Shown here piece after piece: positions 12,640 to 32,000 of a stretch of 32,000 bases of DNA. Positions within the stretch are counted from its first letter, which is position 1. The number at the start of each line of letters is the position of its first letter. The translations under genes and the position numbers were made by a program. The DNA is from Candidatus Nitrospira inopinata (GTDB lineage Bacteria; Nitrospirota; Nitrospiria; Nitrospirales; Nitrospiraceae), in the NCBI RefSeq assembly GCF_001458695.1, contig NZ_LN885086.1, positions 2,310,001-2,342,000 on the forward strand, read 5' to 3'. A model generated the notes under the pieces. That model was not told where the DNA came from and ran no database searches. It saw nothing but the letters and a program-made list of their open reading frames with translations.

Positions 12640-12695
12640 AGAGCAGCGCAAGGATCAAGGGACAAGATCCTATTCGGCACGATGTGACCGATCGA

Positions 12696-16108: not shown

Positions 16109-16401
16109 AGAACTTCGTTCTGGGTGTCTGTTCAGGATGTTTATAGCCTAGCAAATTCCATGGACATCCAAGGTCACTCAGGGGAAGCGAAAGAGACCAG
16201 GCCCGAATGGACATGGCGATAGTACCTAACCCTTTTGGGGGAGTCAACATATACCTTTGAGACAGCAGCCTACGTCATCGGTATTGTGGCCTTAACGTTG
16301 CTTGGATATATTTCGACTCGTTGCCAGCAAGGAGCGAGCTTCTTGAGAAAACCATACGACGAACGAAAAAGAATGGATTTGTGTTGCGCAAGAAACGATT
16401 G

Positions 16402-16424
16402 AGAGTATGAACAGAGTATGAACA
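16402..16424. repeat. Exact tandem direct repeat, 2 x 11 bp (AGAGTATGAAC AGAGTATGAAC A), in the LuxR/PilZ divergent intergenic region
   Basis: Read directly from the sequence. The period is one helical turn. It lies about 70-90 nt upstream of the PilZ gene start, making it a candidate operator or promoter element. Confidence 0.5.
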
Positions 16425-16491
16425 TTGTCCGAAGAGAGAAGGCGATCATGGCAATTCACGGGAATAAGGTTTCTTACCGAAGGGGTCGGCT

Positions 16492-16839
16492 GTGACGCAG
16501 AAAGAATGGGAGTGGCCTATGAAGAACGACAACCATGCAACTCATAGCGAGCGAGCGGCACTTCTACGACCGATTCCCTATGAGATGACCTCGCCAATCG
16601 ACGAAGATGTGGAAAAGGGAAAAGGGAAGGCGTTGTCTCTGAATATCAGCCGGGGGGGCATGTTGGTGATGATGGATCAGGCGCCCAAGATTGAGCAGGT
16701 GTTGAAGGTGTATGTTCCCACGCCGATCACCATCGCCGAGACCCCGACGCTAGCCGAGGTGCGCTGGGTCAGAAAAGTACCGTTCGGGAAGACGAACGGA
16801 GGCGGGCCGTATTTTGTTGGACTCAAGTTCATATTCTGA
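16492..16839 (+). CDS. PilZ domain protein
   Basis: LNISRGGMLV matches the (D/N)xSxxG half of the c-di-GMP binding motif. The upstream half is ERAALLRP (RxxxxR rather than RxxxR). The protein is a small single-domain beta-barrel type. Alternative start ATG 16519 is preceded by GGAG. Confidence 0.75.
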   Translation: MTQKEWEWPMKNDNHATHSERAALLRPIPYEMTSPIDEDVEKGKGKALSLNISRGGMLVMMDQAPKIEQVLKVYVPTPITIAETPTLAEVRWVRKVPFGKTNGGGPYFVGLKFIF

Positions 16840-16856
16840 TATGACGGTGCGATGAA

Positions 16857-17585
16857 ATGATTGTTGGACGTCGTACCCCCCTGGTCACAGAGGCTCCAGC
16901 CGCCGTCGTTGCGGAAAATCGGTCATGTGTCAGAGCGACGATGTGGGCTTTATTGGTAGGGGCAGGGTTGTTCTGTGGTTCTGTCGAGGGCGAAGGGCTG
17001 GCGGAACTTTCGCTTCGAGTCCAAACCAAAGATGGCATGCGGGATTCGGACAAGTCTTCTCTTGTAGTCACGCAAGATTACATTATAGGACCGGAAGATG
17101 TGCTGGATGTCAGCGTCTGGAAGAACGCGGATCTTTCGAGAACGGTGCTGGTTCGCCCCGATGGAAAAATTTCTCTTCCATTGATTGGCGATGTCGTGGC
17201 CGTCGGGCTGACAGCGACTCAATTGGCGGACGTCATTTCAGAACGATTGAGAGAGTTCAAGGAAAATCCCCAGATCTCCATTGTGGTCAGGGAAATCAAC
17301 AGTTATGCGATCTATGTGCTCGGTGAAGTCGCGCATCCGGGAAAATATCCGCTGAAAAGCAAGACCACGTTATTACAGGCGATTACGTTGGCTGGCGGGT
17401 TTACGCCTACGGCGGTGCGGAATAAGATCGTCGTGTTTCGGTTTGGCGAGAGGGGAGAGAAAGACATCAAAATAAAAGTCAACTATGACGACATTATCTT
17501 GCGCGATGGTTCAACGCAAAATCTGATGCTGATTCCAGGCGATACCATCGTAGTCCCTTCGGAAACCATGGTGCTGGTGCCGTAA
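16857..17585 (+). CDS. Polysaccharide export protein, short Wza/EpsE-like (Poly_export + SLBB), paralog 1
   Basis: Key motifs are YIIGPEDVLDVSVWKNADLSRTVLVRPDGKISLPLIGDV.AVGLT..QLADVISERL and SYAIYVLGEVAHPGKYPL...TLLQAITLAGGFT. Alternative start ATG 16941 gives a signal-peptide-like MWALLVGAGLFCGS. Confidence 0.85.
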   Translation: MIVGRRTPLVTEAPAAVVAENRSCVRATMWALLVGAGLFCGSVEGEGLAELSLRVQTKDGMRDSDKSSLVVTQDYIIGPEDVLDVSVWKNADLSRTVLVRPDGKISLPLIGDVVAVGLTATQLADVISERLREFKENPQISIVVREINSYAIYVLGEVAHPGKYPLKSKTTLLQAITLAGGFTPTAVRNKIVVFRFGERGEKDIKIKVNYDDIILRDGSTQNLMLIPGDTIVVPSETMVLVP

Positions 17586-17599
17586 AAGAACACAGGAAA

Positions 17600-18268
17600 A
17601 TGAAAATTGGTCAGCCGTCCAAGATGTGGCTATCACCTCTTGCGATAAAAGGGAGGGAGGATCTTCTCTTGATCAGGATTTTGTTGTGCCCATTCATTCT
17701 TTTTCTAGGAGGTTGTTTGGCAGGGTCGATTCCAAACGAGGTGTTGGAAGAGGTGAATAGGCCACTTCCAAAGGATTTTTTGCTGGGCCCTGAAGATGTT
17801 GTGGAGGTGACGGTCTGGAAAAACCAGGATCTATCACGGATTGTTACCGTGCGACCGGATGGCATGATCTCGCTCCCGCTGATTGGTGATGTGCAAGCGA
17901 GTGGTCTGACGGCAGCTCAGGTTGGTGAGATCATTTCTAAACGGTTGTCCGAGTATAAAGAAAACCCCTCCGTGTCCGTCAGTGTGAAGGAGGTCAACAG
18001 TTACTATATCTATGTTATGGGCGAAGTCGTTCACCCCGGTAAGTTTCCGTTGAAATCGTATGCGACGGTTTTGCAAGGTATTTCGCTGGCCGGCGGATTT
18101 ACCCAATATGCATCCAAAAATCGGATGGCCGTCGTAAGGATAATAGATAAGGGAACACCGGATGAACGCCAGATCAGGATCCCGGTGAGATATGACGATT
18201 TAGTAACAGGGAACGGAGAAATCGGTAACTTTCAGCTGATGTCGGGTGATACCATTGTGGTGCCGTGA
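17600..18268 (+). CDS. Polysaccharide export protein, short Wza/EpsE-like, paralog 2 (lipoprotein)
   Basis: A lipobox FLGGC is followed by FLLGPEDVVEVTVWKNQDLSRIVTVRPDGMISLPLIGDVQASGLT and SYYIYVMGEVVHPGKFPL...VLQGISLAGGFT. It is colinear with paralog 1 over the whole mature length. AGGA precedes ATG 17600. Confidence 0.85.
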   Translation: MKIGQPSKMWLSPLAIKGREDLLLIRILLCPFILFLGGCLAGSIPNEVLEEVNRPLPKDFLLGPEDVVEVTVWKNQDLSRIVTVRPDGMISLPLIGDVQASGLTAAQVGEIISKRLSEYKENPSVSVSVKEVNSYYIYVMGEVVHPGKFPLKSYATVLQGISLAGGFTQYASKNRMAVVRIIDKGTPDERQIRIPVRYDDLVTGNGEIGNFQLMSGDTIVVP

Positions 18269-19619
18269 CCATTCCCTGTTGATACGTTTGGGCTTGGGGA
18301 TCTTGCTGGCGGGGGAAGCATTGATTGCCATGAGCAGCTGTGTTGCGCACGCGCAGGTACCCTATGGACCAGGTGGAGTGCCACAACTACAGTCGCCTTC
18401 AGCAGTGGTCGGAGATCTTGGGGCCGCTGTGGGGGAACTGGGACCTCTCCGCGTCATTCCAACCTTGATGGTGTCTGAGCGGTATGACAGCAACATCCTT
18501 GCGTTTAGAGGTATTGGCGGCCCCCAATGGGACTTTGTGACCGATGTATTTCCTGGTGCCCGTGTGATTCATTCCAACGATTATATCGATTGGACGCTGA
18601 CGGGGCAGGCTATTGCCAGTATCTATGTCAATAATCCCGGTTTGAACTACGTCGGCGCACAGGGGAGTTTCATGACGGTTTTGGATAAGATGTCAGAGAG
18701 GCTCATCCGTGGCCTTGGACTCCGGGTGAGCGGGACCGTTCTTTATTACCCCGAGCAACCGTCTTTTGTTTCCCCTCAAGCCTTGCAATCGGATTTTATT
18801 CGCGGGATTCAAGCCCGTCGAAATAACGCCATAAGCAACACAACCACCGTTCAAGGCGCTTACACCGTGAATCCGTTGGTCCAGGTCACTTCCTCCTATT
18901 CTTATCAGACCATGCGGTTCCTCGGTCAAACCGACTACGGAGATACCGGTCCTCCCGTTCCGCTGTTCGATCTTACAACACATGGCATGACTGCAGGATC
19001 AACCTATCTCGTTTTACCCAGTCAGAGGATCGGAATTTTATATTCCTATCGGGAGATGATGTTCGGATCAAGTACGGGTGACGGTCTTGTTGGAGAGCGT
19101 TTTGGAGGGCGTTCATTCGCCGTTCATGGAGCGAATGCCACATGGAGTGGGGAATTCGGTCGAGAATGGAGAGCCGAAGTATCGCCCGGCTTTTCCCTGG
19201 CGACTCAATTTCCCGACAGACTGCTGTGGACCATCAATGCGAGTCTCCACTGGATAGGCCGGCAAAAATCAGCCAGTGTTTCGTTCAGCAGGGGACTGTA
19301 TCCTAGTTTTTTTGGTGAGGCAGCGCTGCTCGCCAGCAACGTGGTCAGCGGGTCGGCTTCCTATCGTTTTTCTCAGAAGTGGGAAGTGGCTCTGGGGGCC
19401 AATTATGCCGTCAATACTCGAAGTGAAACCGGAGCCGGAGCGACTCCTCTGCGCTTTGAGTCCATCGGTGTCAATGGAACGCTCCGATATTCTTTGTATC
19501 GAGGAATCTCGGCCGCCATAACCGGGAGCCATGGTGACTTTACGATCGAGCAATCTGGTTCGACATTGAGCTATGACCGTCAGGTCGGCATGCTGACACT
19601 GACGGCGGAATGGAACTGA
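18246..19619 (+). CDS. Predicted outer-membrane beta-barrel protein of the EPS locus (EpsL-like by position)
   Basis: The N-terminus looks like a signal peptide (LGLGILLAGEALIAMSSCVAHA/Q). The composition is Gly/Ser/Thr/Tyr-rich with alternating hydrophobic residues and the C-terminus has an aromatic residue (...LTLTAEWN). The start is ambiguous. GTG 18246 overlaps the upstream gene by 23 nt, while TTG 18279 lies just after its stop. Confidence 0.6.
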   Translation: MIPLWCRDHSLLIRLGLGILLAGEALIAMSSCVAHAQVPYGPGGVPQLQSPSAVVGDLGAAVGELGPLRVIPTLMVSERYDSNILAFRGIGGPQWDFVTDVFPGARVIHSNDYIDWTLTGQAIASIYVNNPGLNYVGAQGSFMTVLDKMSERLIRGLGLRVSGTVLYYPEQPSFVSPQALQSDFIRGIQARRNNAISNTTTVQGAYTVNPLVQVTSSYSYQTMRFLGQTDYGDTGPPVPLFDLTTHGMTAGSTYLVLPSQRIGILYSYREMMFGSSTGDGLVGERFGGRSFAVHGANATWSGEFGREWRAEVSPGFSLATQFPDRLLWTINASLHWIGRQKSASVSFSRGLYPSFFGEAALLASNVVSGSASYRFSQKWEVALGANYAVNTRSETGAGATPLRFESIGVNGTLRYSLYRGISAAITGSHGDFTIEQSGSTLSYDRQVGMLTLTAEWN

Positions 19620-21942: not shown

Positions 21943-22995
21943 ATGGAAAAAACGATCACCCCCGTCCTACTCAAGCCGAATAAGGAGCAGGATTACGCGT
22001 CCGGCTTGGATTTGTTCAAGCGGCGGGTCGCTCTTCTCGGCTGCGGCCAGCTTGCGTTGGAGTTGTATCAGGTCCTTGCGGAGAAACGATGGACAAATCT
22101 GCAAATCGTAGGGGTGGTTGACCAGAATCCTCCACGTGCGACCGGTTCGCTTCCCGTCAAGGACCTACAAGTGCTGGGGAGTTGCGAGGATCTTTGCAGG
22201 ATCGTAGAGCAGTTCTCGGTCAACACGATCGTCGTGTGCATGGAGGACAGAAGAGCGGGATTACCGGTGAACGCGCTCCTTGATCTGAAAGCGAGAGGTA
22301 TCGAAGTCATCGATGGGCATCAGATGTTTGAGGAAGTGTCGGGTCGACTCTCGATCGATCAACTTCGCCCGAGTTCGCTCATTTTTTCAACCGGTTTTAA
22401 ACGAAGAGCTCCGACGAAAGTATTAAAACGAACGGTTGATTTGACGGCGTCCGCCCTTGGCTTAGCGATCCTGGCTCCGGCTTTATGCGTCATTGCTCTC
22501 TTGATCAAACTGGATTCTCCGGGGCCGGTGTTTTACCGGCAGATGCGCGTCGGATTGGGAGGGCAGCCGTTCATGATGTGGAAGTTTCGATCCATGTATC
22601 AGGAAGCGGAGCGCCATGGACCTCGCTGGGCCGAGAAAAACGACGCTCGTGTGTCGCGAGTGGGACGAATTCTGCGCAAATTTCGCCTTGACGAGATTCC
22701 ACAGCTCTATAACGTCATTCGAGGAGAAATGAGCCTCGTCGGGCCTCGTCCGGAACGCCCGGTCTTTGTCAACGAGCTGAGAAAAAGCATCCCCTATTAC
22801 GATATCAGGCACACGGTGAGACCGGGACTGACCGGTTGGGCGCAAACGCAGTTTCAATATGGCGCAAGCGCGGAAGACGCGCACGCCAAGCTGCAGTATG
22901 ACTTGTATTACGTCAAGAATATGACCTTTGCGTTGGATCTTCGGATCTTAATCGAAACGGTGCGGGTTGTGTTGCTTGGCGAAGGGGCTCGATAA
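21943..22995 (+). CDS. Polyprenyl-phosphate sugar-phosphate transferase (bacterial sugar transferase family; priming enzyme)
   Basis: The catalytic domain contains KRTVDLTASALGLAILAPALCVIALLIKLDSPGPVFYRQMRVGLGGQPFMMWKFRSM...DEIPQLYNVIRGEMSLVGPRPERP...GLTGWAQ. It is preceded by a Rossmann-like region (VALLGCGQLA...). No N-terminal multi-TM block is present. Confidence 0.9.
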   Translation: MEKTITPVLLKPNKEQDYASGLDLFKRRVALLGCGQLALELYQVLAEKRWTNLQIVGVVDQNPPRATGSLPVKDLQVLGSCEDLCRIVEQFSVNTIVVCMEDRRAGLPVNALLDLKARGIEVIDGHQMFEEVSGRLSIDQLRPSSLIFSTGFKRRAPTKVLKRTVDLTASALGLAILAPALCVIALLIKLDSPGPVFYRQMRVGLGGQPFMMWKFRSMYQEAERHGPRWAEKNDARVSRVGRILRKFRLDEIPQLYNVIRGEMSLVGPRPERPVFVNELRKSIPYYDIRHTVRPGLTGWAQTQFQYGASAEDAHAKLQYDLYYVKNMTFALDLRILIETVRVVLLGEGAR

Positions 22996-23006: not shown

Positions 23007-23948
23007 ATGAAGAGGGAGGGGGTGCATGCCTTGTCGTTCGACGTGGAAGAACACTTCCAGGTTTCTGCCTTCTGGTCGGACGAACGAAGAAACAAGTGGG
23101 AGAGCTATGAGAGCCGCGTTGAACGCAACGTGGAGAAGATACTGAACCTCCTTTCATTCCGCGGAATCCATGCCACCTTTTTTGTGCTCGGTTGGGTGGC
23201 GAGTCGTCATCGGGGACTCGTGAAAGCCATCGTTGATCAGGGACATGAGCTTGCTTCCCATGGGTTCGGTCATGAGTTGATCACAACCCAGCGGCCTGAT
23301 CAGTTTCGCGATGACGTTCGGAAAAGCAAGCAGCTTCTTGAGGACATTGCCGGAGTGCCCGTGTACGGCTACAGGGCGCCATCCTTTACGATTGTTCCAC
23401 GTACCCGATGGGCTCTCTCCATTCTTGTTGAGGAAGGCTATCTTTATGATTCAAGCATTTTCCCCGTCCGTCACGATCGCTACGGCATGCCGGAGGCCGA
23501 TCCCTACTGTCATCTGATAAAGACCGAAAGCGGGCCTCTGTGGGAGGTGCCCCTTTCTACGTTGAAGATGGGGCCTGTCCGTATTCCAATCGCAGGGGGA
23601 GGGTATTTTCGGCTGTTTCCATATCCGGTCTTGCGCAGGCTTCTCGATCGTGCCGTCGTTCACGGCCATCCGTTGATCATGTATCTTCACCCGTGGGAGC
23701 TGGATCCTGAGCAACCCAGAATGGTCGGATCGTGGCGTTCTGTCCTTCGCCATTATCTCAATCTGGGGAAAACGGAAATCCGGCTCCGACGGTTACTGGG
23801 GGATTTTCGATTCACCACCATACGGAACGCCGTCAAAGCGGTGGGAGAAGCCTGTAGTGAAAACCACAACAGTCGTCTCAGTACAGTGACGGTTAATGTT
23901 GGGCAAGATGCAAGCCGATATATAAAGACGGGGAGAGAGAATGCCTGA
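23007..23948 (+). CDS. Polysaccharide deacetylase family protein (PEP-CTERM/XrtA-locus subtype)
   Basis: ALSFDVEEHFQVSAF...ILNLLSFRGIHATFFVLGWVASRHRGLVKAIVDQGHELASHGFGHE is NodB-type, with the opening characteristic of the exosortase-locus subfamily as I recall it. The assignment has not been searched. Confidence 0.8.
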   Translation: MKREGVHALSFDVEEHFQVSAFWSDERRNKWESYESRVERNVEKILNLLSFRGIHATFFVLGWVASRHRGLVKAIVDQGHELASHGFGHELITTQRPDQFRDDVRKSKQLLEDIAGVPVYGYRAPSFTIVPRTRWALSILVEEGYLYDSSIFPVRHDRYGMPEADPYCHLIKTESGPLWEVPLSTLKMGPVRIPIAGGGYFRLFPYPVLRRLLDRAVVHGHPLIMYLHPWELDPEQPRMVGSWRSVLRHYLNLGKTEIRLRRLLGDFRFTTIRNAVKAVGEACSENHNSRLSTVTVNVGQDASRYIKTGRENA

Positions 23949-24447
23949 ACAGGCTGAAAGCGAATGGTATGTGGTGCGAACCAAACCTCATCAGGAGGCA
24001 GTGGCTGAATCGAGTTTGTTGAGGGGGGGGATTGAGGCGCTCTGCCCGCGAATCCAGGAGCGACGCGTCATTCGGAGAAAAATGCAGCAGATCATCAGTC
24101 CACTGTTTCCCGGGTATCTGTTTGCAAGGTCTTCCCCATCGGGATGGCGGTTGATTCAGTACGCTAGGGGTGTAAGTCATTTGGTCTCTTTCGGGGACGG
24201 GCCGGTCGTTGTGAGACCGGAAGTCATGGAAGAGATTTTTAGAAGACTCGAAAGAGGCATTGTTGTTCCTCAGCCTAGAACATTCGCGCATGGCGACGTG
24301 GTGCGGATTACCGAAGGCCCTCTGCAAGGCTTGGAAGCGGTGTTCGAGCGGGAACTGGCAGGACAGCAGCGAGCGATGTTGCTGATGAAGATGCTGGCCG
24401 GTCAAGTGCGCGTGGTGTTGGATTTGAGTTCCATTGTGAATGCCTAA
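23941..24447 (+). CDS. rfaH: RfaH-like specialised NusG paralog (transcription antiterminator)
   Basis: The protein is 168 aa. NGN domain motifs are WYVVRTKPHQE...PLFPGYLFAR...ARGVSHLVSFG. The KOW domain reads GDVVRITEGPLQGLEAVFERELAGQQRAMLLMKML. It is colinear by eye with E. coli RfaH. It overlaps the deacetylase gene by 8 nt and lies inside a polysaccharide locus rather than next to secE/rplK. Confidence 0.8.
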   Translation: MPEQAESEWYVVRTKPHQEAVAESSLLRGGIEALCPRIQERRVIRRKMQQIISPLFPGYLFARSSPSGWRLIQYARGVSHLVSFGDGPVVVRPEVMEEIFRRLERGIVVPQPRTFAHGDVVRITEGPLQGLEAVFERELAGQQRAMLLMKMLAGQVRVVLDLSSIVNA

Positions 24448-24630: not shown

Positions 24631-24642
24631 GGCGGTAGCCTG
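24631..24642 (+). promoter_or_regulatory. ops-like element GGCGGTAGCCTG (matches consensus GGCGGTAGnnTG at all specified positions)
   Basis: Read directly from the sequence. It is on the + (non-template) strand in the 290-nt non-coding leader between the RfaH-like gene and the AsnB-like gene, about 95 nt upstream of ATG 24738. Confidence 0.6.
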
Positions 24643-24737: not shown

Positions 24738-26681
24738 ATGTGTGGTATAGCCGGATTTGTGGCACAAAACGGCGGCTCCTGTAACGATGGAATGATCCGC
24801 CGCATGATCGCGATGATCAATCATCGCGGACCGGATGCCGTCGGATTTCACATGGACGGGCCGGTTGGGTTGGGACATGCCAGGCTGAGCATTATCGATC
24901 TCGACGGAGGGGCTCAGCCGATGCCGAACGAAGACGAAACCCTGTGGATTACCTTCAACGGAGAAATTTTCAATTACGTGGAATTGCGAGACGAGCTGAT
25001 CAAGAAAGGACATCGGTTCAGAACCCAGTCTGATACGGAAGTCATCCTTCATTTGTACGAGGAAAAAGGCGAATCCTGCGTCCTCGACCTCAATGGACAG
25101 TGGGCATTCGCGATTTGGGACGTGAAGCGGAGACGGTTGTTTCTGTCACGCGACAGACTGGGCATCCGTCCGCTCTTCTATGCGACAACGAAGGACGGCT
25201 TTGGATTCGCATCCGAGATCAAGTCCTTGCTGACCATCCCGTCGCTGCCGCGGGTGATCGATCCACTTGCGCTGGACCAAATCTTCACCTTCTGGGTGAC
25301 AATTCCTCCCACGACGATGTTTGCCGGAGTGTCGGAACTTCCTTCCGGCCATTGTTTGACCCTGGAGGAGGGGAGAATCACGGTCGCTCCCTTTTGGACG
25401 CTGGAGTACAAAAGCGGCGCGAGAATCGGAAGCGAGCAGGAAGCCCGCGAGGAGCTGCTTGCTCTGCTGCTCGATGCCACGAGGCTTCGATTACGATCGG
25501 ACGTGCCGGTCGGAGCCTATCTAAGCGGCGGACTGGATTCGACTGTGATCGCCGCACTGATCAAGAGACTCGGCGTCACGCGCTTGAAAACCTTTTCCGT
25601 GGCGTTCGAGGACAAGGAATTCGACGAAAGCGCGTTTCAAGAGGAAGCTCGCCAATTTCTCGGCACCGATCATCAAACCGTGCTGTGCCGGCCGGGCGAC
25701 ATCGGACGAATATTCCCCGAGGTGATCTGGCATACGGAAACGCCGATTGTACGGACCGCTCCCGCGCCGTTGTTTCTGTTGTCCAAGCTGGTTCATGAGC
25801 AGGGATATAAGGTTGTGTTGACGGGCGAAGGGTCCGACGAGGTCTTGGGCGGATACGACATTTTTAAGGAGGCCAAGATTCGTCGGTTTTGGGCCAACCA
25901 GCCGGAGTCGAAGTTCCGCCCGCTCCTTCTGAGAAAGCTCTATCCGTACATGAAAAATCTTCAATCCCAGCCGGATGCCTACTTGCGGGCGTTTTTTCAC
26001 GTGCGCAAACAGGAACTGAACAGCCCGTTTTTCTCGCATCTGCCTCGCTGGGAGATGACGTCCAAACTGAAGCAATTCTTTTCGCAAGAGGTGAAAGATC
26101 GCATCGGGAGCAGCCAAGCCTTGCATCGGTTGGAGAAACGGTTGCCGCACAATTACGATCGGTGGGATTGGTTCGCCCGATCGCAATATTTGGAGACCGC
26201 CTATCTATTGCCCGGGTATATTTTGTCGTCGCAGGGGGATCGGATGGCGATGGCTCACTCCGTCGAAGGGCGATTCCCTTTTTTGGACTATCGCCTTGTC
26301 CAGTTCGCGGCCAGACTTCCCCCGCGCCTCAAGATGAACGTCTTGAATGAAAAGTATCTCTTGAAGCAAGCGGCCGGCTCCTTGGTCCCTGAGACGATTC
26401 GCAAGCGGCACAAACAGCCCTATCGTGCTCCTGACAGCCAAAGTTTTCTTCTTCGGGATGGCTCTCATTCGATGGTGGAGTATGCCGAAGAATTGCTCAG
26501 CCCCCACGCGATAGCTCATGCCGGTCTGTTTGATGCGGAGAGAGTAGGAAAGTTGGTGGAAAAAGTTCGGGCGGGACAGGCCATTGGTGTGAAAGACAAC
26601 ATGGCCTTCGTCGGGATTTTGTCGGCGCAGTTGGTGGTGGATCGGTTCATCAAGCATTTTCCCAAGGAGCAAACACTATGA
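24738..26681 (+). CDS. Asparagine synthase (glutamine-hydrolysing) family amidotransferase, exosortase-locus type
   Basis: MCGIAGFV carries the Ntn Cys2, and the glutaminase domain contains HRGPD and HARLSIIDL. The synthetase domain has the PP-loop SGGLDS (YLSGGLDSTVIAAL). The protein is 647 aa. I see no obvious Shine-Dalgarno upstream (GCTAGTCATCCTTATATG). Confidence 0.88.
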   Translation: MCGIAGFVAQNGGSCNDGMIRRMIAMINHRGPDAVGFHMDGPVGLGHARLSIIDLDGGAQPMPNEDETLWITFNGEIFNYVELRDELIKKGHRFRTQSDTEVILHLYEEKGESCVLDLNGQWAFAIWDVKRRRLFLSRDRLGIRPLFYATTKDGFGFASEIKSLLTIPSLPRVIDPLALDQIFTFWVTIPPTTMFAGVSELPSGHCLTLEEGRITVAPFWTLEYKSGARIGSEQEAREELLALLLDATRLRLRSDVPVGAYLSGGLDSTVIAALIKRLGVTRLKTFSVAFEDKEFDESAFQEEARQFLGTDHQTVLCRPGDIGRIFPEVIWHTETPIVRTAPAPLFLLSKLVHEQGYKVVLTGEGSDEVLGGYDIFKEAKIRRFWANQPESKFRPLLLRKLYPYMKNLQSQPDAYLRAFFHVRKQELNSPFFSHLPRWEMTSKLKQFFSQEVKDRIGSSQALHRLEKRLPHNYDRWDWFARSQYLETAYLLPGYILSSQGDRMAMAHSVEGRFPFLDYRLVQFAARLPPRLKMNVLNEKYLLKQAAGSLVPETIRKRHKQPYRAPDSQSFLLRDGSHSMVEYAEELLSPHAIAHAGLFDAERVGKLVEKVRAGQAIGVKDNMAFVGILSAQLVVDRFIKHFPKEQTL

Positions 26682-26947
26682 CGCCAATTGAGGCTCAGGT
26701 ACGGCGGTACGTGACGGATCGATTGTTGTTTGGGCGGTCGGATGTCGCGGTTGAAGGCGACACGTCGTTCTTGGAATCTGGGCTGATCGATTCGACGGGA
26801 GTCTTGGAGTTGGTCGCCTTCCTGGAAGAAAGCTTTAAAATCAAAGTAGAAGACGAAGACCTTATTCCGGCGAATCTTGATTCGATCAATGCACTGACTC
26901 GGTTTATTCAGGCTAAATCTCCAGCCCTCGCCGATAGTCGCGCCTAG
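26678..26947 (+). CDS. Acyl carrier protein
   Basis: The protein is 89 aa and has a phosphopantetheine-attachment-like motif GLIDSTGVLELVAFLEESF. The start overlaps the upstream stop (ATGA). Confidence 0.8.
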   Translation: MTPIEAQVRRYVTDRLLFGRSDVAVEGDTSFLESGLIDSTGVLELVAFLEESFKIKVEDEDLIPANLDSINALTRFIQAKSPALADSRA

Positions 26948-26953
26948 GTCTCC

Positions 26954-29900
26954 ATGCTGGTCGAGGAATTTTTAGAAGCGAGCGCCGCCCGTCTCCCTGA
27001 CAAGGTCGCTGTTGTTGCGGGAGAGCGAAGGATCACGTATAGAGAACTCGACGAGCGGGCAAATGCGTTGGCCCATTCGCTTGTGCAGGCTGGTATTCAA
27101 CGGGGAGAGCGCGTCGTCATCTGCCTTGCCAACTCCATCGAAGTCGTGCTTTCGATTTTTGGGGTTTTGAAGGCGGGCGGTGTGTTTGCAGTGTTGAGCC
27201 CTTCAGCGAAGGCCGAAAAAATAGGCTATGTTCTGACACAGAGTCGGGCGTCCGGTCTCATCATGGCGGGCAAACGCCTGAGTGAACTCTTGCCCCTGAC
27301 AGACCAACTTAATGGCCTTCAAGTCATTGTGGGGACCGGAGCGGTGACCAAGGAGCAATGGGAAGGGACCCCGAAAGTGGTCTCGTTCGCGCAGTGTATA
27401 GAGAATGAAGGTCGTCGGAACGCTCCCCCCAAACGGAACATTGATGTTGATCTGGCCGCGCTGATCTACACATCGTCCTCCACCGGCGAATCGAAGGGGG
27501 TCATGCTCACTCATCTAAACATCCGTTCGGCAGCCGCCTCCATTCTTGCCTATTTGGAGTATGGACAGGACGACGTTATTCTCAATGTCCTCCCTCTCTC
27601 GTTCGATTACGGGCTGTATCAAGTCTTAATGGGCGTCAAGGTCGGCGCTCGAATCGTTCTTGAGCCGTCGTTCGCCTATCCTCATGCGGTGTTCCAACGC
27701 ATCGAGCAGGAACGTGTCACCGTACTGCCGTTGGTCCCGACGTTGATCGCTGCGTTGCTTGAAACGAAGCCAGACCGCTATGACTTGACTTCCGTCCGAT
27801 GTATAACTACGACGGGAGCCGCCCTGCCGACCGATCACATCGGGCGGTTGCGTGAACGTCTGCCGAAGGCGAAACTGTTCTCGATGTACGGCCTGACGGA
27901 GTGTAAACGGGTGTCGTATCTTCCGCCGGAAGAATTGGATCGAAGGCCGATGTCCGTGGGAAAGGGCATGCCAAACCAAGAACTTTATCTGGTGGATGTC
28001 GATGGCAATCGTCTTGGGCCGGGATCGATGGGAGAACTCGTGGTCAGGGGATCTCACGTGATGAAGGGCTATTGGAACATGCCGGAAGAGACCGCCCGTG
28101 TATTGAAGCCCGGTCCTTGGGGAGACGAGCGAGTGCTGTTCACGGGCGATTGGTTCCGCATGGATGAGGAAGGCTATCTTTACTTCATCGGTCGCAAGGA
28201 CGATATGATCAAAACGGGCGGGAAAAAAGTCAGCCCGCGCGAGGTGGAAAACGTCCTGCACGGCATAACGGAGATTGCGGAGGCGGCGGTCATCGGAGTG
28301 CCCGATCCTCGACTCGGCCATGTGGTCAAGGCCTTCGTTCGCCTGCGCGAAAGCGCCGATCTTACGGAAGCGGACGTGATCCGTCACTGCCGAAGCTCTC
28401 TTGAAGACTACATGGTTCCGAAAGTCGTTGCGTTTATCGAGGCCTTTCCAAGGACGGACAGTGGAAAGGTGGACAAAAGAGCTTTGGAGCAAATGAGCAC
28501 GTCTTCGCAAAGCGGCGGCCATTGGACGTCACCGGTCAAAGCCGAGAGCGACGATCCCCGCACGGCGGCGGAGGAATCCAGGATTGAGCGGATCATCAAC
28601 AGTGTGATGGAGGCGCACGGTCAGAGGACGGCGGTCGTTTATAAAAACGAACGGTATACCTATGGAGACCTGCGCACGCTCGTCAATGTTCAAAAAAGCA
28701 AGTTGGCCGATGCGGGTTTGACCAGACAGGACCGGGCCATCATCTGGATGGAAAATTCTCCCGAGTATGTCGTGACCTACTTGGCGGTATTGGAACTGGA
28801 GGCGATCGTGGTGGCGCTCCATCCTCAAACGACTACGGAAGAAGTGGTGCGGATTATCCGCCACGTGGGTGCCGCAGGTGTGATCATCTCTCCAACCGTG
28901 AAACACTGGACGATGGGCGATTTTGAATCCGCCGGGATCCGCTTCGTACTGGCGGGCGACGGCCTTCATCGTTTGCGGGCCTTCGACCAAGGACAGGCCG
29001 TTCCCGATGGGATTGCGCAGATCATCTATACGTCCGGCTCGACTGGACGACCGAAGGGCGTAGTACTCACCCATCGGAATCTCATTGCGAACACGAGATC
29101 GATTCTGGACTATTTGCAGTTGACCCGTGAAGATTCGGTCATGGCGGTTTTGCCGTTCGTTTACGCCTACGGCAACTCCGTCATGCTGACACACTTGTTT
29201 GCGGGAGGTGCGCTCGCGATCGAGAACAACATGCTGTATCCGCAGACGGTCGTGGATGCCATGATCAAGAATAACGTGACCGGATTATCCGGCGTCTCCA
29301 CAACCTACGCGCTGTTGCTGAATAACTCGAACTTCAAATCCTCAACCTTCCCCGCCTTGCGGTACCTCACCCACGCGGGAGGGCCAATGCCGTCGGAGTT
29401 GTTGGGCCGAATCCGAACCGCGTTCCCGGATCGGCAAATTTATTTGATGTACGGCCAAACCGAAGCCTCGGCCCGTCTGACCTATCTTCCTCCGGAACTG
29501 TTGGACGTCAAAAAAGGATCAGCAGGGCGTGCAATTCCAGGAGTGAGGCTCAAGATCGTCAAGGATGGAGGGGAGACGGCTCGGCCCGGCGAGGCTGGAG
29601 AAATTTGGGCCTTCGGCGACAATATCATGCAGGGCTATTGGCAAGACCCGGAACTGACGGCCGAAGTCCTCCAAGGTGGATGGCTGCGCACGGGAGACGT
29701 TGGCTGGTTGGATGAAGAAGGGTTTGTGACCATCGTCGGGCGCAATAATGAAATGATCAAATCCGGCGCGTATCGGATCAGTCCGACGGAGATCGAGGAA
29801 GTCCTGTTGCAGCATCCTCAAATCTTGGAAACCGGTGTCGTGGGAATCGAAGATCCGATTTTGGGACAGAAAATCTGCGCGGTGGTGGTTCTCAAGGAAG

Positions 29901-30085
29901 AGGGATTTCTCACCCAGCGCGATTTGATGGGCTACTGCGCACAACGGCTGGTCCCCTACAAGAGACCGAAGGTTATTGCCATCGTCTCCGCCTTACCGAA
30001 ATCCCCTTCCGGCAAGATTTTGCGACATCGCTTGCGCGAAATCGGTGTCGCGGCGGCCGGAGCGGCGGTCCCGGCTTCTTCATAG
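26954..30085 (+). CDS. Two-module adenylate-forming enzyme (tandem AMP-dependent synthetase/ligase domains in one polypeptide)
   Basis: Module 1 (approx. 26954-28500) has YTSSSTGESKGVMLTH, YGLTEC, GDWFRMDEEGYLYFIGRKDDMIKTGGKKVSPREVE and PRTDSGKVDKRAL. Module 2 (approx. 28580-30085) has YTSGSTGRPKGVVLTH, YGQTEA, GDVGWLDEEGFVTIVGRNNEMIKSGAYRISPTEIE and PKSPSGKILRHRL. Both modules share the YLPPE(E/L)LD motif. They are joined by a Ser/Pro/charged linker (MSTSSQSGGHWTSPVKAESDDPRTAAEES). Confidence 0.88.
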   Translation: MLVEEFLEASAARLPDKVAVVAGERRITYRELDERANALAHSLVQAGIQRGERVVICLANSIEVVLSIFGVLKAGGVFAVLSPSAKAEKIGYVLTQSRASGLIMAGKRLSELLPLTDQLNGLQVIVGTGAVTKEQWEGTPKVVSFAQCIENEGRRNAPPKRNIDVDLAALIYTSSSTGESKGVMLTHLNIRSAAASILAYLEYGQDDVILNVLPLSFDYGLYQVLMGVKVGARIVLEPSFAYPHAVFQRIEQERVTVLPLVPTLIAALLETKPDRYDLTSVRCITTTGAALPTDHIGRLRERLPKAKLFSMYGLTECKRVSYLPPEELDRRPMSVGKGMPNQELYLVDVDGNRLGPGSMGELVVRGSHVMKGYWNMPEETARVLKPGPWGDERVLFTGDWFRMDEEGYLYFIGRKDDMIKTGGKKVSPREVENVLHGITEIAEAAVIGVPDPRLGHVVKAFVRLRESADLTEADVIRHCRSSLEDYMVPKVVAFIEAFPRTDSGKVDKRALEQMSTSSQSGGHWTSPVKAESDDPRTAAEESRIERIINSVMEAHGQRTAVVYKNERYTYGDLRTLVNVQKSKLADAGLTRQDRAIIWMENSPEYVVTYLAVLELEAIVVALHPQTTTEEVVRIIRHVGAAGVIISPTVKHWTMGDFESAGIRFVLAGDGLHRLRAFDQGQAVPDGIAQIIYTSGSTGRPKGVVLTHRNLIANTRSILDYLQLTREDSVMAVLPFVYAYGNSVMLTHLFAGGALAIENNMLYPQTVVDAMIKNNVTGLSGVSTTYALLLNNSNFKSSTFPALRYLTHAGGPMPSELLGRIRTAFPDRQIYLMYGQTEASARLTYLPPELLDVKKGSAGRAIPGVRLKIVKDGGETARPGEAGEIWAFGDNIMQGYWQDPELTAEVLQGGWLRTGDVGWLDEEGFVTIVGRNNEMIKSGAYRISPTEIEEVLLQHPQILETGVVGIEDPILGQKICAVVVLKEEGFLTQRDLMGYCAQRLVPYKRPKVIAIVSALPKSPSGKILRHRLREIGVAAAGAAVPASS

Positions 30086-30106
30086 GCCGCCATCATTCAC
30101 CTATCC

Positions 30107-30118
30107 GGCGGTAGCTTA
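30107..30118 (+). promoter_or_regulatory. Second ops-core match GGCGGTAGCTTA (8-nt core exact; last position deviates from nnTG)
   Basis: Read directly from the sequence. It is on the + strand in the 84-nt spacer between the ligase gene and the NadE-like gene. Its GGCGG half can pair with CCGCC at 30087-30091. Confidence 0.3.
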
Positions 30119-30169
30119 AAAAAACGACGCGCTGTAATTCAGTTGGATACCCTACTAGGGAGAAACAAT

Positions 30170-31171
30170 ATGGGAGAAAACAGGAATAAGTTCTCGCCCG
30201 ATCATCTGCGGCTTGATGCAAAGGCCGAGGTCGAACGAATTGTCTCCTTCATCAGGGACACCGTGTTTACACGGCTCAAACGAAAGGGGATAGTCGTCGG
30301 CCTATCCGGAGGCATCGACAGCAGCACGGTCGTCGCCCTCGCCGTCCGCGCGTTGGGAGCCGATCGGGTGATCGGGTTGTTCATGCCGGAGTCCGATTCC
30401 TCGGATGACAGTTTGCGCTTGGGGCAATTGCTGGCGAAGGAGCTGGGGATCAAAACGTTCACCGAAGACATCTCCGGCATTCTTCGGGGAGCCGATTGTT
30501 ACCGCAGGCGTGATGAAGCGATTCGCACCGTGGTGCCGGAGTATCATTCCGGCTACAAGTCCAAGCTGGTGCTCTCCCCGCTCGACAGTTCCGAGTTTCG
30601 CATCTCCTACGTCGTGGTGCAGCCCCCGGAGGGCGAGCAGCGCAAGATCCGTCTGACAGCCGAGGCATTTTTGGCGCTGGTTGCCGCGACAAACTTTAAG
30701 CAGCGTACCAGGAAGATGATGGAGTATTACTATGCCGATCGCTTTCTGTACGCTGTTGCGGGGACGCCGAATCGGTTGGAGTACGATCTTGGGTTTTTTG
30801 TCAAAAACGGGGACGGCTCGGCCGATATCAAGCCAATCGCGCACCTGTACAAATCGCAAGTCTATCAACTCGCTGGGTATCTCGGCGTGCCGCAGGAGAT
30901 TTTGAATCGTCCCCCCACCACCGACACGTACTCGCTGCCCCAGTCGCAGGAAGAATTCTATTTCTCTCTCCCGTACGACAAGATGGACCTTTGTCTGTAC
31001 GGCAAGACCCATCGATTGCCTGCTTCGGAGGTCGCCGAGGCGCTTGGAATGAGCGAAGCTCAGGTCGAACGGGTGTATCGCGATATCGACGCCAAGCGAG
31101 CCGTCGCCCGTTACCTTCACATGGAGCCGTTGCTCATCGAACCGATCAAGGAAGCGGTCGTCGATTTTTAA
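30170..31171 (+). CDS. NAD+ synthase (NadE)-family PP-loop ATP pyrophosphatase
   Basis: The PP-loop is VVGLSGGIDSSTVVALAVRALG. NadE-like blocks include FKQRTRKMMEYYYA, AGTPNRLEYDLGFFVKNGDGSADIKPIAHLYKSQVYQLAGYLGVP and PPTTD. ATG 30170 is preceded by GGGAG. The ORF-track TTG at 30143 is a possible alternative start. Confidence 0.8.
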   Translation: MGENRNKFSPDHLRLDAKAEVERIVSFIRDTVFTRLKRKGIVVGLSGGIDSSTVVALAVRALGADRVIGLFMPESDSSDDSLRLGQLLAKELGIKTFTEDISGILRGADCYRRRDEAIRTVVPEYHSGYKSKLVLSPLDSSEFRISYVVVQPPEGEQRKIRLTAEAFLALVAATNFKQRTRKMMEYYYADRFLYAVAGTPNRLEYDLGFFVKNGDGSADIKPIAHLYKSQVYQLAGYLGVPQEILNRPPTTDTYSLPQSQEEFYFSLPYDKMDLCLYGKTHRLPASEVAEALGMSEAQVERVYRDIDAKRAVARYLHMEPLLIEPIKEAVVDF

Positions 31172-31184
31172 AGTTCTCTCCTCC

Positions 31185-32000
31185 ATGAAACCCGCAACCT
31201 GTTCTTTGCCGGCGATGGATTGGACTGTCCCCGATCGGCGAGTCCTGATGCTTGGTTGTGTTCTGGCCGCCGCGTTCCTTTTTTGCTACATAGACGTGCT
31301 GATCGGAATGGGCAGGCAGTGGTGGAACATCTCTTTTTATTCCTACGCTTTTTTGATTCCCGGCATCAGCGCCTATCTCGTGTGGGTCAGGCGGGATCAA
31401 CTGTGGGCGGTACAGCCGGAGCCGGCCTATGTGACCGGGACGGTCATTACCGCCGCCGGCTTGTCGGCGTTGATAGTCGGTCGCGCGGCCGGCATTCAGA
31501 CCGTGCAGCAGATGTCGTTGCTGATCACCGTTCCCGGTGTCGTGTTGTTTCTTTTCGGGTGGCGAGTCCTCAAAGTGCTTGGCCTGCCGATTGCGTTTTT
31601 AGGATTTATGATTCCCGTGTGGGACGCCGTCACCGAACCGCTCCATTTACCCTTTCAACGCCTCTCGGCCGACCTTGGCGTGCGGCTGCTGAACCTGTTC
31701 GGGATTCCGGTCTATCAGAACGGCGTGTTCATCTACCTTCCGAATATCACGCTGGAAGTCGCCAAATCGTGCAGCGGTGTCAACTATTTGATCGCGGTGT
31801 TGGCCACGTCGATTCCACTGGCGACCATTGTGCTTCATAGTGTCTGGAAGCGGATAGGCCTTGTCGTATTAGCGGTGACGGTTTCCGCCCTGGCCAACAG
31901 TTTACGTGTCGCGTTGATCGGGATGTTGGCCTATTACGATGTGAGCGGCGATCTTCATGGTCCGTACCACACGTTACACGGCATATTTACCTCGATGGTC
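31185..32000 (+). CDS. Exosortase (XrtA-like), 3'-truncated by window edge; not present in the supplied ORF track
   Basis: My own translation from ATG 31185 is open for 272 codons to the window end. It reads MKPATCSLPAMDWTV...WWNISFYSYAFLIPGISAYLVW..., a polytopic membrane protein. It has the exosortase signature NITLEVAKSCSGVNYL (Cys codon 31770-31772) and ANSLRVALIG (Arg codon 31905-31907). The track ORF 31220-31840 is an Arg-rich off-frame artefact. Alternative start ATG 31215. Confidence 0.85.
   Translation, partial: MKPATCSLPAMDWTVPDRRVLMLGCVLAAAFLFCYIDVLIGMGRQWWNISFYSYAFLIPGISAYLVWVRRDQLWAVQPEPAYVTGTVITAAGLSALIVGRAAGIQTVQQMSLLITVPGVVLFLFGWRVLKVLGLPIAFLGFMIPVWDAVTEPLHLPFQRLSADLGVRLLNLFGIPVYQNGVFIYLPNITLEVAKSCSGVNYLIAVLATSIPLATIVLHSVWKRIGLVVLAVTVSALANSLRVALIGMLAYYDVSGDLHGPYHTLHGIFTSMV

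Follow-up and report, generated by a model that had tools for sequence, protein, structure and literature searches.

An AsnB-carrier-ligase-NadE-like operon upstream of exosortase W in Nitrospira, probably for an amidated aspartate-type surface building block

The accessory set of exosortase A (XrtA), to go by the family names, comprises a TIGR03098 ligase, an ACP, a TIGR03099 decarboxylase, TIGR03100/03101 hydrolases and a TIGR03108 amidotransferase. In the vicenistatin system, VinN attaches an acid of the aspartate type to the stand-alone carrier VinL in the form of a beta-amino acid. In type IX secretion (T9SS), a FemAB-like enzyme, a deacetylase and an AsnB-like enzyme build the linking sugar, the sorted protein is joined to the aminoacyl amine of that sugar, and the authors of that work proposed an amino-acid-modified sugar for exosortase systems. 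The Sinorhizobium meliloti carrier SMb20651 is proven to be phosphopantetheinylated and is acylated in E. coli when co-expressed with SMb20650, which is annotated as a long-chain fatty-acid ligase; in 2017, the function of both was still said to need investigation.

We analyzed a window of 32,000 nucleotides from Candidatus Nitrospira inopinata, in which a + strand run at 24738-32000 encodes an AsnB-like protein, a carrier protein, a two-module ligase, a NadE-like enzyme and an exosortase (Table 1). All five genes are present, with intergenic gaps of -4, 6, 84 and 13 nt, in order, the carrier start overlapping the asnB stop by 4 bp. Both the gene content and the tight packing described in the first-pass annotation are borne out, as is its count, by profile matches, of four ATP-dependent carboxylate-activating units and one carrier. 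The surrounding genes belong to the XrtA-system families TIGR03013, TIGR03006 and TIGR03019; between 16.5 and 32 kb, the priming phosphoglycosyl transferase is the only sugar transferase, and the earlier statement that this interval holds no GT-A/GT-B, Wzx or Wzy gene stands. For the ops core GGCGGTAG, 0.55 chance matches are expected per window. The 12-mer GGCGGTAGCCTG or a near variant lies 100-220 nt past the RfaH-like gene at eight related loci, and the second core copy, in the ligase-nadE spacer, occurs in the closest relatives only.

Table 1. Features of the exosortase W locus (positions within the window).
Feature	Position	Strand	Evidence or remark
Priming phosphoglycosyl transferase, TIGR03013 family	21943..22995	+	TIGR03013 424 bits (cutoff 393)
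Polysaccharide deacetylase, XrtA-system type	23007..23948	+	TIGR03006 366 bits (cutoff 276)
RfaH/NusG-paralogue transcription antiterminator	23941..24447	+	TIGR01955 115 bits (below cutoff 144.5); PF02357
ops-like element GGCGGTAGCCTG	24631..24642	+	Within 291-nt leader preceding asnB; contains exact ops core GGCGGTAG
AsnB-like glutamine amidotransferase with PP-loop synthetase domain	24738..26681	+	TIGR01536 530 bits; Pfam GATase_7, Asn_synthase
Stand-alone carrier protein, 89 aa	26678..26947	+	PF00550; DS serine kept
Two-module ligase, 1043 aa	26954-30085	+	Two AMP-binding + AMP-binding_C sets
Ligase module N, VinN-like adenylation module	26954..28525	+	Predicted aspartate-type substrate
Ligase module C, second adenylate-forming module	28526..30085	+	Without amine-binding Asp
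Second ops-core copy GGCGGTAG	30107..30114	+	In ligase-nadE spacer
NadE-like PP-loop enzyme, NF002048/PRK00876 subfamily	30170..31171	+	NF002048 502 bits (cutoff 313); PF02540 181 bits
Exosortase W (XrtW) gene, 5' part	31185..32000	+	From ATG 31185, runs past window end; PF09721 201 bits

The window fragment of the exosortase matches NF038142 with 364 bits across 253 of 494 positions. The full-length protein (513 aa), taken from the identical contig, scores 608 bits against XrtW (cutoff 425) and 198 bits against XrtA, below the cutoff of 208. The locus is thus not of the exosortase A type, as had been supposed, and EpsI, which was to be looked for downstream, is present as the C-terminal domain of XrtW (TIGR02914, 95 bits). 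Nor is the cassette a modified XrtA set: both ligase halves fall below the TIGR03098 cutoff and the AsnB-like protein below that of TIGR03108 (436 bits against 817), and the decarboxylase and alpha/beta hydrolases that might have lain beyond the window are absent from the 10 kb downstream.

The carrier-ligase pair directly precedes the exosortase gene at 18 of 25 XrtW-like loci, 12 of which have the NadE-like gene as well, so that the link to XrtW exceeds chance, while the remaining seven are entirely without the operon. Exosortases directly following a NadE-like gene in Nitrospira, Manganitrophus, Nitrospiria and another Nitrospirota genome all score above the XrtW cutoff. At XrtW-like loci, the insertion point of the cassette is fixed between the deacetylase and the exosortase, and reverse neighborhood analysis found the deacetylase directly upstream of the exosortase at related loci that lack the cassette. 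Searching from XrtW-like genes, we found FemAB genes within 4 kb downstream at 19 of 33 loci; at the Nitrospirota locus, the neighboring genes encode FemAB-like proteins and a DegT aminotransferase besides a polysaccharide deacetylase. The four-gene set is placed upstream of XrtW preferentially, not obligately.

The AsnB-carrier-ligase-NadE-like set is a self-standing conserved operon found in many phyla. Counting partner genes within 10 kb of the NadE-like gene, we found AsnB and the carrier each at 41 of 43 loci with full flanks, the ligase at 37 and all three at 36. The operon also occurs in Actinomycetota, and the PGAP-annotated operons of Mesorhizobium, Roseateles and S. meliloti have identical gene order with 4-bp overlaps. 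An exosortase lies within 10 kb at 10 of 80 NadE-like loci; the proposed tie between cassette and exosortase therefore stands as a preference at XrtW, and elsewhere the operon is mostly exosortase-free. The operon is already on the experimental record through SMb20651/SMb20650, locus tags that we infer to denote the pSymB operon, which adjoins the only tagged ACP of that replicon.

This distribution bears on whether the cassette is a dedicated exosortase accessory, a non-canonical XrtA-associated set whose sole role would be to provide the acceptor or anchor for exosortase transpeptidation. The synteny at XrtW is conserved across Nitrospirota, with the carrier-ligase pair upstream at most XrtW-like loci, TIGR03098 ranks first or within 5 bits of first among curated families for the two ligase modules, and T9SS offers an analogy. 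Such exclusivity is nevertheless hard to square with the few NadE-type operons that have an exosortase nearby, the Actinomycetota operons and the stand-alone copy on S. meliloti pSymB, the XrtW-like loci without the operon, and a cassette that misses every XrtA-set cutoff and lacks the decarboxylase and hydrolases, and we regard this explanation as possible but doubtful. By analogy with the T9SS linking sugar, the cassette product may still act as an acceptor for exosortase transpeptidation.

Core motifs are kept in both ligase halves. The protein is a fusion of two different ligase types that are 32.6% identical and are each found alone elsewhere; it is no recent duplication, and its description as duplicated in the first-pass annotation is not supported. 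Module N scores 482 bits against TIGR03098 (cutoff 592), its top-scoring curated family, and module C scores 362 bits against PRK06187 and 358 bits against TIGR03098, its second-best family, both below cutoff. The top single-domain PDB match of module N is VinN (178 bits, aligned without gaps), and among solved single-domain proteins its nearest relatives are VinN and SlgN1, enzymes for 3-methylaspartate/aspartate. All five specificity positions match, with D230, F231, S299, K330 and R331 of VinN opposite D, Y, T, K and R, and the shortened beta13-beta14 loop is matched as well. On the strength of these five aligned residues, the substrate of module N is predicted to be an aspartate-type acid. 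This signature is conserved at ~38 genome loci and in all N-type ligases inspected at XrtW-like loci, the FDYGLY and TECKR motifs of N-type ligases are kept across phyla, and in variant ligases the Asp and Lys positions co-vary. Module C has Ala at the Asp235-equivalent position and a loop longer by one residue, and its nearest structures are aryl/acyl-CoA ligases. About one third of the operons encode a C-type ligase alone, without the amine-binding Asp, indicating that the loaded acid is not uniform.

The top PDB matches of the carrier are stand-alone PCPs (2my5, PigG, PltL), followed by fatty-acid ACPs, and by sequence it resembles the peptidyl carriers more closely; it is 45-48% identical to the operon ACPs of S. 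meliloti and Mesorhizobium. Alternatively, the ligase could be a fatty acyl-carrier synthetase, with the operon making, in place of an aminoacyl donor, an N-acyl compound or amidated lipid, for example an aminolipid or lipid anchor, as the annotation of SMb20650, the acylation of SMb20651 upon co-expression and the generic NCBIfam matches of the ligase to fatty-acid CoA ligases would suggest. Fatty acyl (C12/C18) forms of SMb20651 have reportedly been seen in E. coli, which favors this alternative and counts against aspartate loading. Against it stand the ligase pocket, where charged and polar residues as in VinN (Asp, Lys, Arg) take the place of a hydrophobic tunnel, the likeness of the carrier to peptidyl carriers, and the failure of SMb20650 to replace FadD in any assay, all of which test CoA ester formation only. 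We consider a fatty-acyl product unlikely.

The AsnB-like protein keeps the N-terminal MCGI and the SGGLDS PP-loop motif, and its nearest solved structure is the hydroxyamidotransferase 7ylz (222 bits). The NadE-like protein, with its ATG start set following public assemblies, belongs to a small subfamily (417 clusters at E<=1e-30), and its AF2 model has the NadE fold with an extra three-stranded insertion at ~residues 121-161; this insertion of ~50 residues is absent from all solved NadEs. Its active-site motifs, SGGIDS and GFFVKNGDG, are close to those of true NAD synthases, so NaAD or NaMN may be the substrate. With fold and catalytic motifs retained, both proteins above cutoff for NF002048 and TIGR01536, and PGAP names of nadE and asnB, the two could be a true ammonia-dependent NAD+ (or NMN) synthetase and a true asparagine synthetase that stand beside the carrier and ligase for supply or regulation only. 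However, fusions of NadE-like proteins to the ligase, to AsnB parts, to phosphopantetheinyl transferase and to a carrier domain speak against housekeeping NAD synthesis, as do the near-constant four-gene association across phyla and the insertion. NadE-like genes also reside on rhizobial megaplasmids, among them S. meliloti pSymB, whose removal is not known to cause NAD auxotrophy, and Azospirillum has two other characterized NadE enzymes. A housekeeping role is, in our judgment, quite improbable.

We hold with moderate confidence that the Nitrospira copy of the operon works by carrier-protein chemistry, not NAD/asparagine housekeeping, following the pathway below as a whole, and that it probably supplies the cell surface with an amidated aspartate-type building block. 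Module N would adenylate an aspartate-type amino acid at the side-chain carboxylate and thioesterify it onto the phosphopantetheine arm of the carrier, as VinN does with VinL, so that the tethered acid keeps its amino group and alpha-carboxylate free. The AsnB-like enzyme, with nitrogen from glutamine, and the NadE-like enzyme, with ammonia, would adenylate and amidate the remaining carboxylates of the tethered acid, possibly of the acceptor too, to give a neutral, amide-capped aminoacyl donor; a tethered aspartate offers a single free carboxylate, which accounts only in part for the presence of two amidating enzymes. An amide product is also suggested by the HemK/PrmC-type (NPPY) N-methyltransferase that recurs in at least nine loci, a family that methylates carboxamide nitrogen. 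Module C would load or add a second acid without an amine. Transfer to the acceptor would be carried out by GNAT/FemAB-type or SGNH-type enzymes encoded beside the operon, although the usual substrate of FemAB enzymes is aminoacyl-tRNA and not a carrier-bound aminoacyl group, which counts against this step. At the Nitrospirota locus, the acceptor is likely an amino sugar in the repeat or primer of the exopolysaccharide that has lost its N-acetyl group, and XrtW could then plausibly use the free amine of the attached residue as nucleophile. The RfaH paralogue, acting at the ops-like site, probably allows transcription to read through the whole unit. No PEP-CTERM substrate genes were found near the locus, an absence that counts against the pathway.

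Most loci sit amid glycosyltransferases, priming transferases, deacetylases, epimerases or flippases, and acyltransferase-like neighbors are recurrent. Together with the fixed insertion point at XrtW-like loci, this makes it very unlikely that the operon releases a free small metabolite, such as an amidated amino-acid derivative, from the carrier with no glycan attachment and only an incidental position in EPS loci. That proposal would fit the variable accessory genes beyond the core four and the S. meliloti operon, whose neighbors are transport, VOC and aldo-keto reductase genes. The S. meliloti flanks hold no glycan genes, which counts against a surface-glycan pathway.

Both the XrtA set, whose composition finds no mention in the 2006 paper, and the window cassette lie in an exosortase EPS locus and join a dedicated carrier with an adenylating ligase and an amidotransferase of the AsnB type. 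The cassette differs in missing all three family cutoffs, in lacking a decarboxylase and alpha/beta hydrolase, in encoding a further ligase module and a NadE-like enzyme instead, and in its exosortase, XrtW. Like NadE and the Francisella NMN synthetase, the NadE-like enzyme has a PP-loop fold with SGGxDS and GFFxKxGDG motifs (target-normalized TM-scores of 0.77-0.79 against its AF2 model), whereas its insertion forms three extra strands and its distinct small subfamily, NF002048, is a constant operon partner of carrier-protein enzymes and is also found fused to them. The T9SS linking-sugar pathway (FemAB-like VimA, deacetylase VimE, AsnB-like PGN_1234/WbpS) likewise places such enzymes beside a sorting transpeptidase, the FemAB family here being TIGR03019, but carrier protein, ligase and NadE-like enzyme are all missing from it, and its sortase PorU is unrelated to exosortases, making this an analogy only. 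VinN and VinL are likewise a stand-alone ANL enzyme and a stand-alone carrier, VinN being the best single-domain structural relative of module N at moderate overall identity, with the substrate of module N predicted; they serve polyketide macrolactam synthesis, with a decarboxylase acting next, in contrast to the two amidating PP-loop enzymes and the surface polysaccharide context found here. Finally, the S. meliloti pSymB operon encodes only one ligase, of the N type, lacks an RfaH/ops leader and has neither an exosortase nor glycan genes beside it, but it shares the gene order asnB - smb20651 (ACP) - smb20650 (ligase) - nadE with overlapping stops and starts, its ligase carries the FDYGLY/TECKR signature of module N, and its proteins are 54% (AsnB), 45% (carrier), 50% (ligase module N) and 59% (NadE-like) identical to those of the window.

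The cassette of Candidatus Nitrospira inopinata consists, as the first-pass annotation described, of five tightly spaced + strand genes at 24738-32000 of the window, with spacers of -4, 6, 84, and 13 nt (Table). Public contigs, including GCA_041694755.1, are identical to the window (0 mismatches over 11,831 nt), so that the genes past position 32000 are also readable.

Table. Positions and supporting matches of features in the window.
Feature	Position (nt)	Strand	Match or content
Housekeeping genes	66-14726		glmU, gatA, gatB, enolase, glgA
Start of EPS locus	16492-19619		Small PilZ-domain protein, two tandem Wza-like (Poly_export/SLBB) proteins, 457-aa protein
RfaH-like gene	23941-24447		115 bits, under the RfaH cutoff of 144.5
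ops-like site	24631-24642		Full match to the 12-nt consensus GGCGGTAGCCTG; asnB leader, 184 nt past the RfaH-like gene
AsnB-like gene	24738-26681	+	TIGR01536, 530 bits; N-terminal MCGI glutaminase start, SGGLDS PP-loop
Carrier protein gene, 89 aa	26678-26947	+	DS serine present
Two-module ligase gene, 1043 aa	26954-30085	+	Two complete AMP-binding + AMP-binding_C sets; core motifs intact in both halves
Ligase module N	26954-28525	+
Ligase module C	28526-30085	+
Second ops core	30107-30114		Between ligase and NadE-like genes
NadE-like gene	30170-31171	+	PF02540; NF002048, 502 bits vs. cutoff of 313
Exosortase gene	From 31185, past window end	+	PF09721, 201 bits

Exosortases were assigned to XrtW when the whole protein scored above 425 bits with NF038142 and carried a C-terminal EpsI fusion, and to XrtA when TIGR03109 exceeded 208 bits and was the top-scoring exosortase model. 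The full 513-aa Nitrospira protein reaches 608 bits against the curated XrtW cutoff (the fragment inside the window gives 364 bits over half of the model), and its C-terminus is a fused EpsI domain (TIGR02914, 95 bits). The protein is not of the exosortase A type, with which the first-pass annotation compared the locus: TIGR03109 scores 198-200 bits, below its cutoff and far under the XrtW score. The neighboring genes likewise fall outside the XrtA set (TIGR03098 ligase, ACP, TIGR03099 decarboxylase, TIGR03100/03101 hydrolases, and TIGR03108 amidotransferase). The 834 bits of the whole ligase with TIGR03098 are the sum of two modules, which score 482 (module N) and 358 bits (module C) alone vs. 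a cutoff of 592, and the AsnB-like protein scores 436 bits vs. 817 for TIGR03108, passing only the generic TIGR01536 cutoff. The first-pass annotation allowed that a decarboxylase and hydrolases might lie past the window end; no gene within 8 kb on the upstream side or 10 kb on the downstream side had a Pfam or NCBIfam match to a PLP-dependent decarboxylase or an alpha/beta hydrolase.

When one genome per species was scanned with a degenerate pattern, the NadE-like protein proved to have at least 592 relatives, of which the best 80 share 59-87% identity. Their record titles place these 80 in Nitrospirota, Acidobacteriota, Planctomycetota, Myxococcota, Alpha-, Beta-, and Gammaproteobacteria, Actinomycetota, Verrucomicrobiota, Gemmatimonadota, Elusimicrobia, KSB1, Ignavibacteriota, and others. 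Partner genes were counted in the 43 loci with full 10-kb flanks from tblastn matches, not gene calls, because ORF calling is noisy in high-GC loci. Within 10 kb of the NadE-like gene, 41/43 loci have an AsnB-like gene, 41 a carrier gene, 37 an adenylating ligase, and 36 all three; any other gene family is common to ~14 loci at most. On a Mesorhizobium ciceri plasmid, a Roseateles plasmid, and Sinorhizobium (S.) meliloti pSymB, RefSeq annotates four consecutive genes with overlapping ends, in the order asnB, acyl carrier protein, class I adenylate-forming enzyme, and nadE, with generic product names only. The Nitrospira genes keep this order, and their products share 45-59% identity with those of S. 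meliloti and Mesorhizobium. The cassette thus forms an operon in its own right, widely distributed and of the S. meliloti asnB-ACP-ligase-nadE type, here joined to XrtW. In distant phyla, and just upstream of the operon in S. meliloti too (locus L089, 7278-8894), genes for an aldo-keto reductase (compared loci L011, L013, L014, L021, L022, and L056) and for a small VOC/glyoxalase-family, methylmalonyl-CoA-epimerase-like protein (L013, L019, L024, L030, and L042) recur nearby.

The junction with XrtW is itself recurrent. The gene that immediately follows the NadE-like gene passes the XrtW cutoff, at 536-608 bits, in Nitrospira, Manganitrophus, a Nitrospiria genome, and another Nitrospirota genome. 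Conversely, a search of metagenome contigs with an XrtW alignment returned 80 loci, 25 of them with at least 3.5 kb of upstream sequence. Carrier and/or ligase genes lie directly upstream of the exosortase in 18 of these 25 XrtW-like loci, 12 of the 18 also have the NadE-like gene, and in 7 of the 25 the interval between deacetylase and exosortase is empty; given these counts, the operon, or its carrier-ligase core alone, is an insert that XrtW-type loci carry optionally, always at the same position. The pairing of cassette and exosortase proposed from the window was thus correct in that carrier and ligase genes occur upstream of XrtW far above chance, but neither partner needs the other, with an exosortase within 10 kb of the NadE-like gene in only 10/80 of the best-matching loci. 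Downstream, a FemAB gene lies within 4 kb of the exosortase in 19/33 loci.

The S. meliloti copy is located on pSymB (NC_003078.1, 1450569-1455469), and from the replicon and the ACP-ligase adjacency we infer that it is the smb20651/smb20650 operon. A 2009 paper on SMb20651 reportedly describes an operon of four genes, asnB and nadE1 among them, and C12 and C18 acyl forms in E. coli. More recent work (Geiger/López-Lara laboratory, 2020) reported that the pSymB ligase gene smb20650 and the carrier gene smb20651 are cotranscribed, that AcpS turned SMb20651 into its holo form, that co-expression of SMb20650 in E. coli resulted in acylated carrier, and that SMb20650 failed to substitute for FadD in every assay. 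A 2017 paper counted SMb20651 among the S. meliloti carriers with a function still to be investigated.

The ligase had been described as duplicated and fused; the two-module fusion is real, while the halves are only 32.6% identical and each type occurs separately elsewhere. Single-ligase operons in other genomes have the N type in 43 cases and the C or another type in 22, and a few loci have both types, as separate genes or fused. Given this identity and the single ligases of either type, the Nitrospira protein is a fusion of two distinct enzymes.

The best single-domain PDB match to module N is VinN (3WV4; 178 bits over the core, gapless), the vicenistatin enzyme that loads an aspartate-type acid on the stand-alone carrier VinL, with SlgN1 among the next structural relatives; both enzymes activate 3-methylaspartate. 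Glycine was considered as a substrate and rejected, linear gramicidin synthase having topped the PDB list for module N only by summing two A domains. According to a review of adenylation domains, VinN holds its substrate as a beta-amino acid via D230, F231, S299, and K330-R331, and its beta13-beta14 loop, which carries K330-R331, is one residue shorter than usual. We considered a domain VinN-type if it had the amine-binding Asp, a bulky neighbor, Ser/Thr at 299, and a Lys-Arg pair in the beta13-beta14 loop, which had to be one residue shorter than that of alpha-amino-acid domains. Module N has D/Y/T/K/R at D230/F231/S299/K330/R331 (in the motifs SFDYGLY, ITTTGAALP, and YGLTECKRVSYLPP) and a loop of equal length, and its predicted substrate is an aspartate-type acid loaded through the side chain. 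The rhizobial operons and ~38 of the genome loci keep the signature, and so does every N-type ligase that was read at the XrtW-like loci. XrtA plasmids of Alteromonas and Vibrio were consulted for the signature in true TIGR03098 ligases, but neither locus has the ligase set. In variant N-type ligases (L016, L031, L034, L067, L076, and L080), Asp is replaced by Gly/Cys together with Lys by Leu/Ile/Met/Thr. Such joint loss of the Asp and the loop Lys is as expected for specificity residues, and suggests a change to another acid within an unchanged operon frame. Module C has Ala for the Asp and a loop (TEASARL) one residue longer, without the Lys-Arg pair; among solved structures, it comes closest to aryl- and acyl-CoA ligases. 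The C-type ligase is the only one in a third of operons, which does not fit the aspartate model.

Among solved structures, the carrier is nearer to stand-alone peptidyl carrier proteins, PigG and PltL among them, than to fatty-acid ACPs. Its top NCBIfam match, the OlsHI ACP (45 bits vs. a cutoff of 130), had pointed to an ornithine-lipid pathway; this was dropped, as the OlsH pathway is GH3-based and unrelated. The closest solved relative of the AsnB-like protein is the hydroxyamidotransferase 7ylz, ahead of E. coli AsnB, which shows that the family acts on carboxylates besides aspartate.

The NadE-like protein belongs to the NadE superfamily by sequence and fold, its SGGIDS loop and GFFVKNGDG motif being kept near those of true NAD synthases, and both NadE and Francisella NMN synthetase can be superposed on its AlphaFold model (mean pLDDT 79); NaAD could accordingly still be its substrate. 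The model also has a three-stranded insertion at residues ~121-161 that is absent from all solved NadEs, and the family comprises only 417 clusters at E<=1e-30 in a library of 1.84 billion representatives. Among the matching proteins, the NadE-like part is joined to a full ligase in P0121, to a 4'-phosphopantetheinyl transferase in P0122, to an AMP-binding_C plus carrier domain in P0128, and to parts of AsnB in P0157 and P0247. Some of these fusions could be gene-call artefacts; taken as a group, they link the enzyme with carrier-protein chemistry, and with the genomic context they argue for a substrate other than NaAD. The subfamily, automatically named "NAD(+) synthase," is probably not an NAD synthase.

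The cassette lies in an EPS locus. Upstream of the cassette, the PilZ, Wza-like, and 457-aa proteins, the last without a family, are joined by a chain-length determinant/tyrosine kinase, a TIGR03013 priming transferase, a TIGR03006 deacetylase, and the RfaH-like gene. The 457-aa protein may be an outer-membrane component. Downstream of XrtW are a 241-aa protein without a family, a TIGR03019 FemAB-family protein, a DegT aminotransferase, two further Acetyltransf_6 proteins, a GT2, a VanZ/TPR protein, a second deacetylase, and an ATP-grasp protein. G+C content is ~0.60 in the first half of the window and ~0.52-0.56 across the EPS locus from ~15 kb on. The ~240-aa protein directly after XrtW (12601-13323 in L002, ~600 nt past the window end) has no Pfam or NCBIfam match and is the commonest accessory gene of the operon, occurring in 14 other loci (e.g., L009, L024, L055, and L063); read by eye, it has SGNH-like GHQS(V)G and DGGH motifs, and it is a candidate acyl transferase or esterase. 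No PEP-CTERM substrates came up when the window and four related loci were scanned with a regular expression. For regulation, we looked for an RfaH-family protein together with an ops element (GGCGGTAGnnTG) within the leader of the operon that it would regulate. The ops consensus is matched here and the RfaH-like protein scores below the RfaH cutoff (Table), so that antitermination of this kind is a possibility. Eight related loci (L007, L008, L092, L100, L107, L109, L116, and L130) have this 12-mer, or one nearly identical to it, after their RfaH-like gene. Promoter and terminator consensus sites in 23.8-32 kb do not exceed their number in shuffled sequence.

In the pathway that we propose as the best-supported reading, module N would put an aspartate-type acid on the carrier via its side-chain carboxylate, free carboxylates would be amidated by the PP-loop enzymes, module C would bring in a second acid without an amine, and an adjoining acyltransferase would hand the group to an acceptor. 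Candidate transferases recur but vary, and include FemAB/Acetyltransf_6 proteins, two ~360-aa GNAT-like families, and the SGNH-motif protein without a family. A HemK/PrmC-type methyltransferase with NPPY is found beside the operon in at least nine loci (L087 at 15710-16435, L018, L033, L044, L051, L056, L057, L063, L065, and L068); methylation by this family is on amide nitrogen, in keeping with a carboxamide product and hinting that it is N-methylated. Other observations do not fit. A tethered aspartate has one free carboxylate, vs. two amidating enzymes that nearly always occur together; FemAB enzymes normally use aminoacyl-tRNA, at odds with carrier-fed transfer; and the S. meliloti operon has no glycan genes beside it.

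Exosortases are present in thousands of environmental bacteria, and to our knowledge their attachment target and the role of the co-travelling ligase and carrier genes are still unknown in the field. The present data make the XrtW-side carrier-ligase pair part of a much wider four-gene operon with a concrete, testable substrate prediction, an aspartate-type acid that would be side-chain loaded and then amidated, and because S. meliloti has the same operon, this can be tested in a genetically tractable host. Literature searches on exosortase with NAD synthase, XrtW, the four-gene set with polysaccharide, and Nitrospira exosortase returned nothing relevant; relative to searchable papers, the breadth of the operon, its preference for insertion upstream of XrtW, the VinN-type substrate prediction, and the NadE-like fusions appear to be new.

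The cassette works like an exosortase-associated carrier/ligase set, yet differs from the XrtA set in every comparison of membership; the ligase/ACP set goes unmentioned in the 2006 PEP-CTERM paper. A bolder reading, which we consider rather unlikely, is that the exosortase acceptor would be a carrier-built, beta-linked aspartate (isoasparagine-type), amidated while tethered by the NadE-family PP-loop enzyme and transferred by a FemAB-like protein to a de-N-acetylated sugar, its alpha-amine then serving as the XrtW nucleophile for cleaved PEP-CTERM proteins; by extension, the XrtA ligase/ACP/decarboxylase set would make the beta-alanyl equivalent. If true, amidation on a carrier would be new chemistry for the NadE family. 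In P. gingivalis, FemAB-like, deacetylase, and AsnB-like enzymes make 2-N-seryl-3-N-acetylglucuronamide, a linking sugar whose seryl amine accepts secreted proteins, and the authors of that study suggest that exosortase systems may work alike. By analogy, we infer for the proposed pathway that the carrier-bound group would be delivered to an acceptor and could act in the XrtW reaction. The three enzyme types of the P. gingivalis system are also found in the Nitrospira locus, which adds a carrier pathway to them, and for this reason a free-amine, carrier-delivered residue is a reasonable candidate for the XrtW acceptor.
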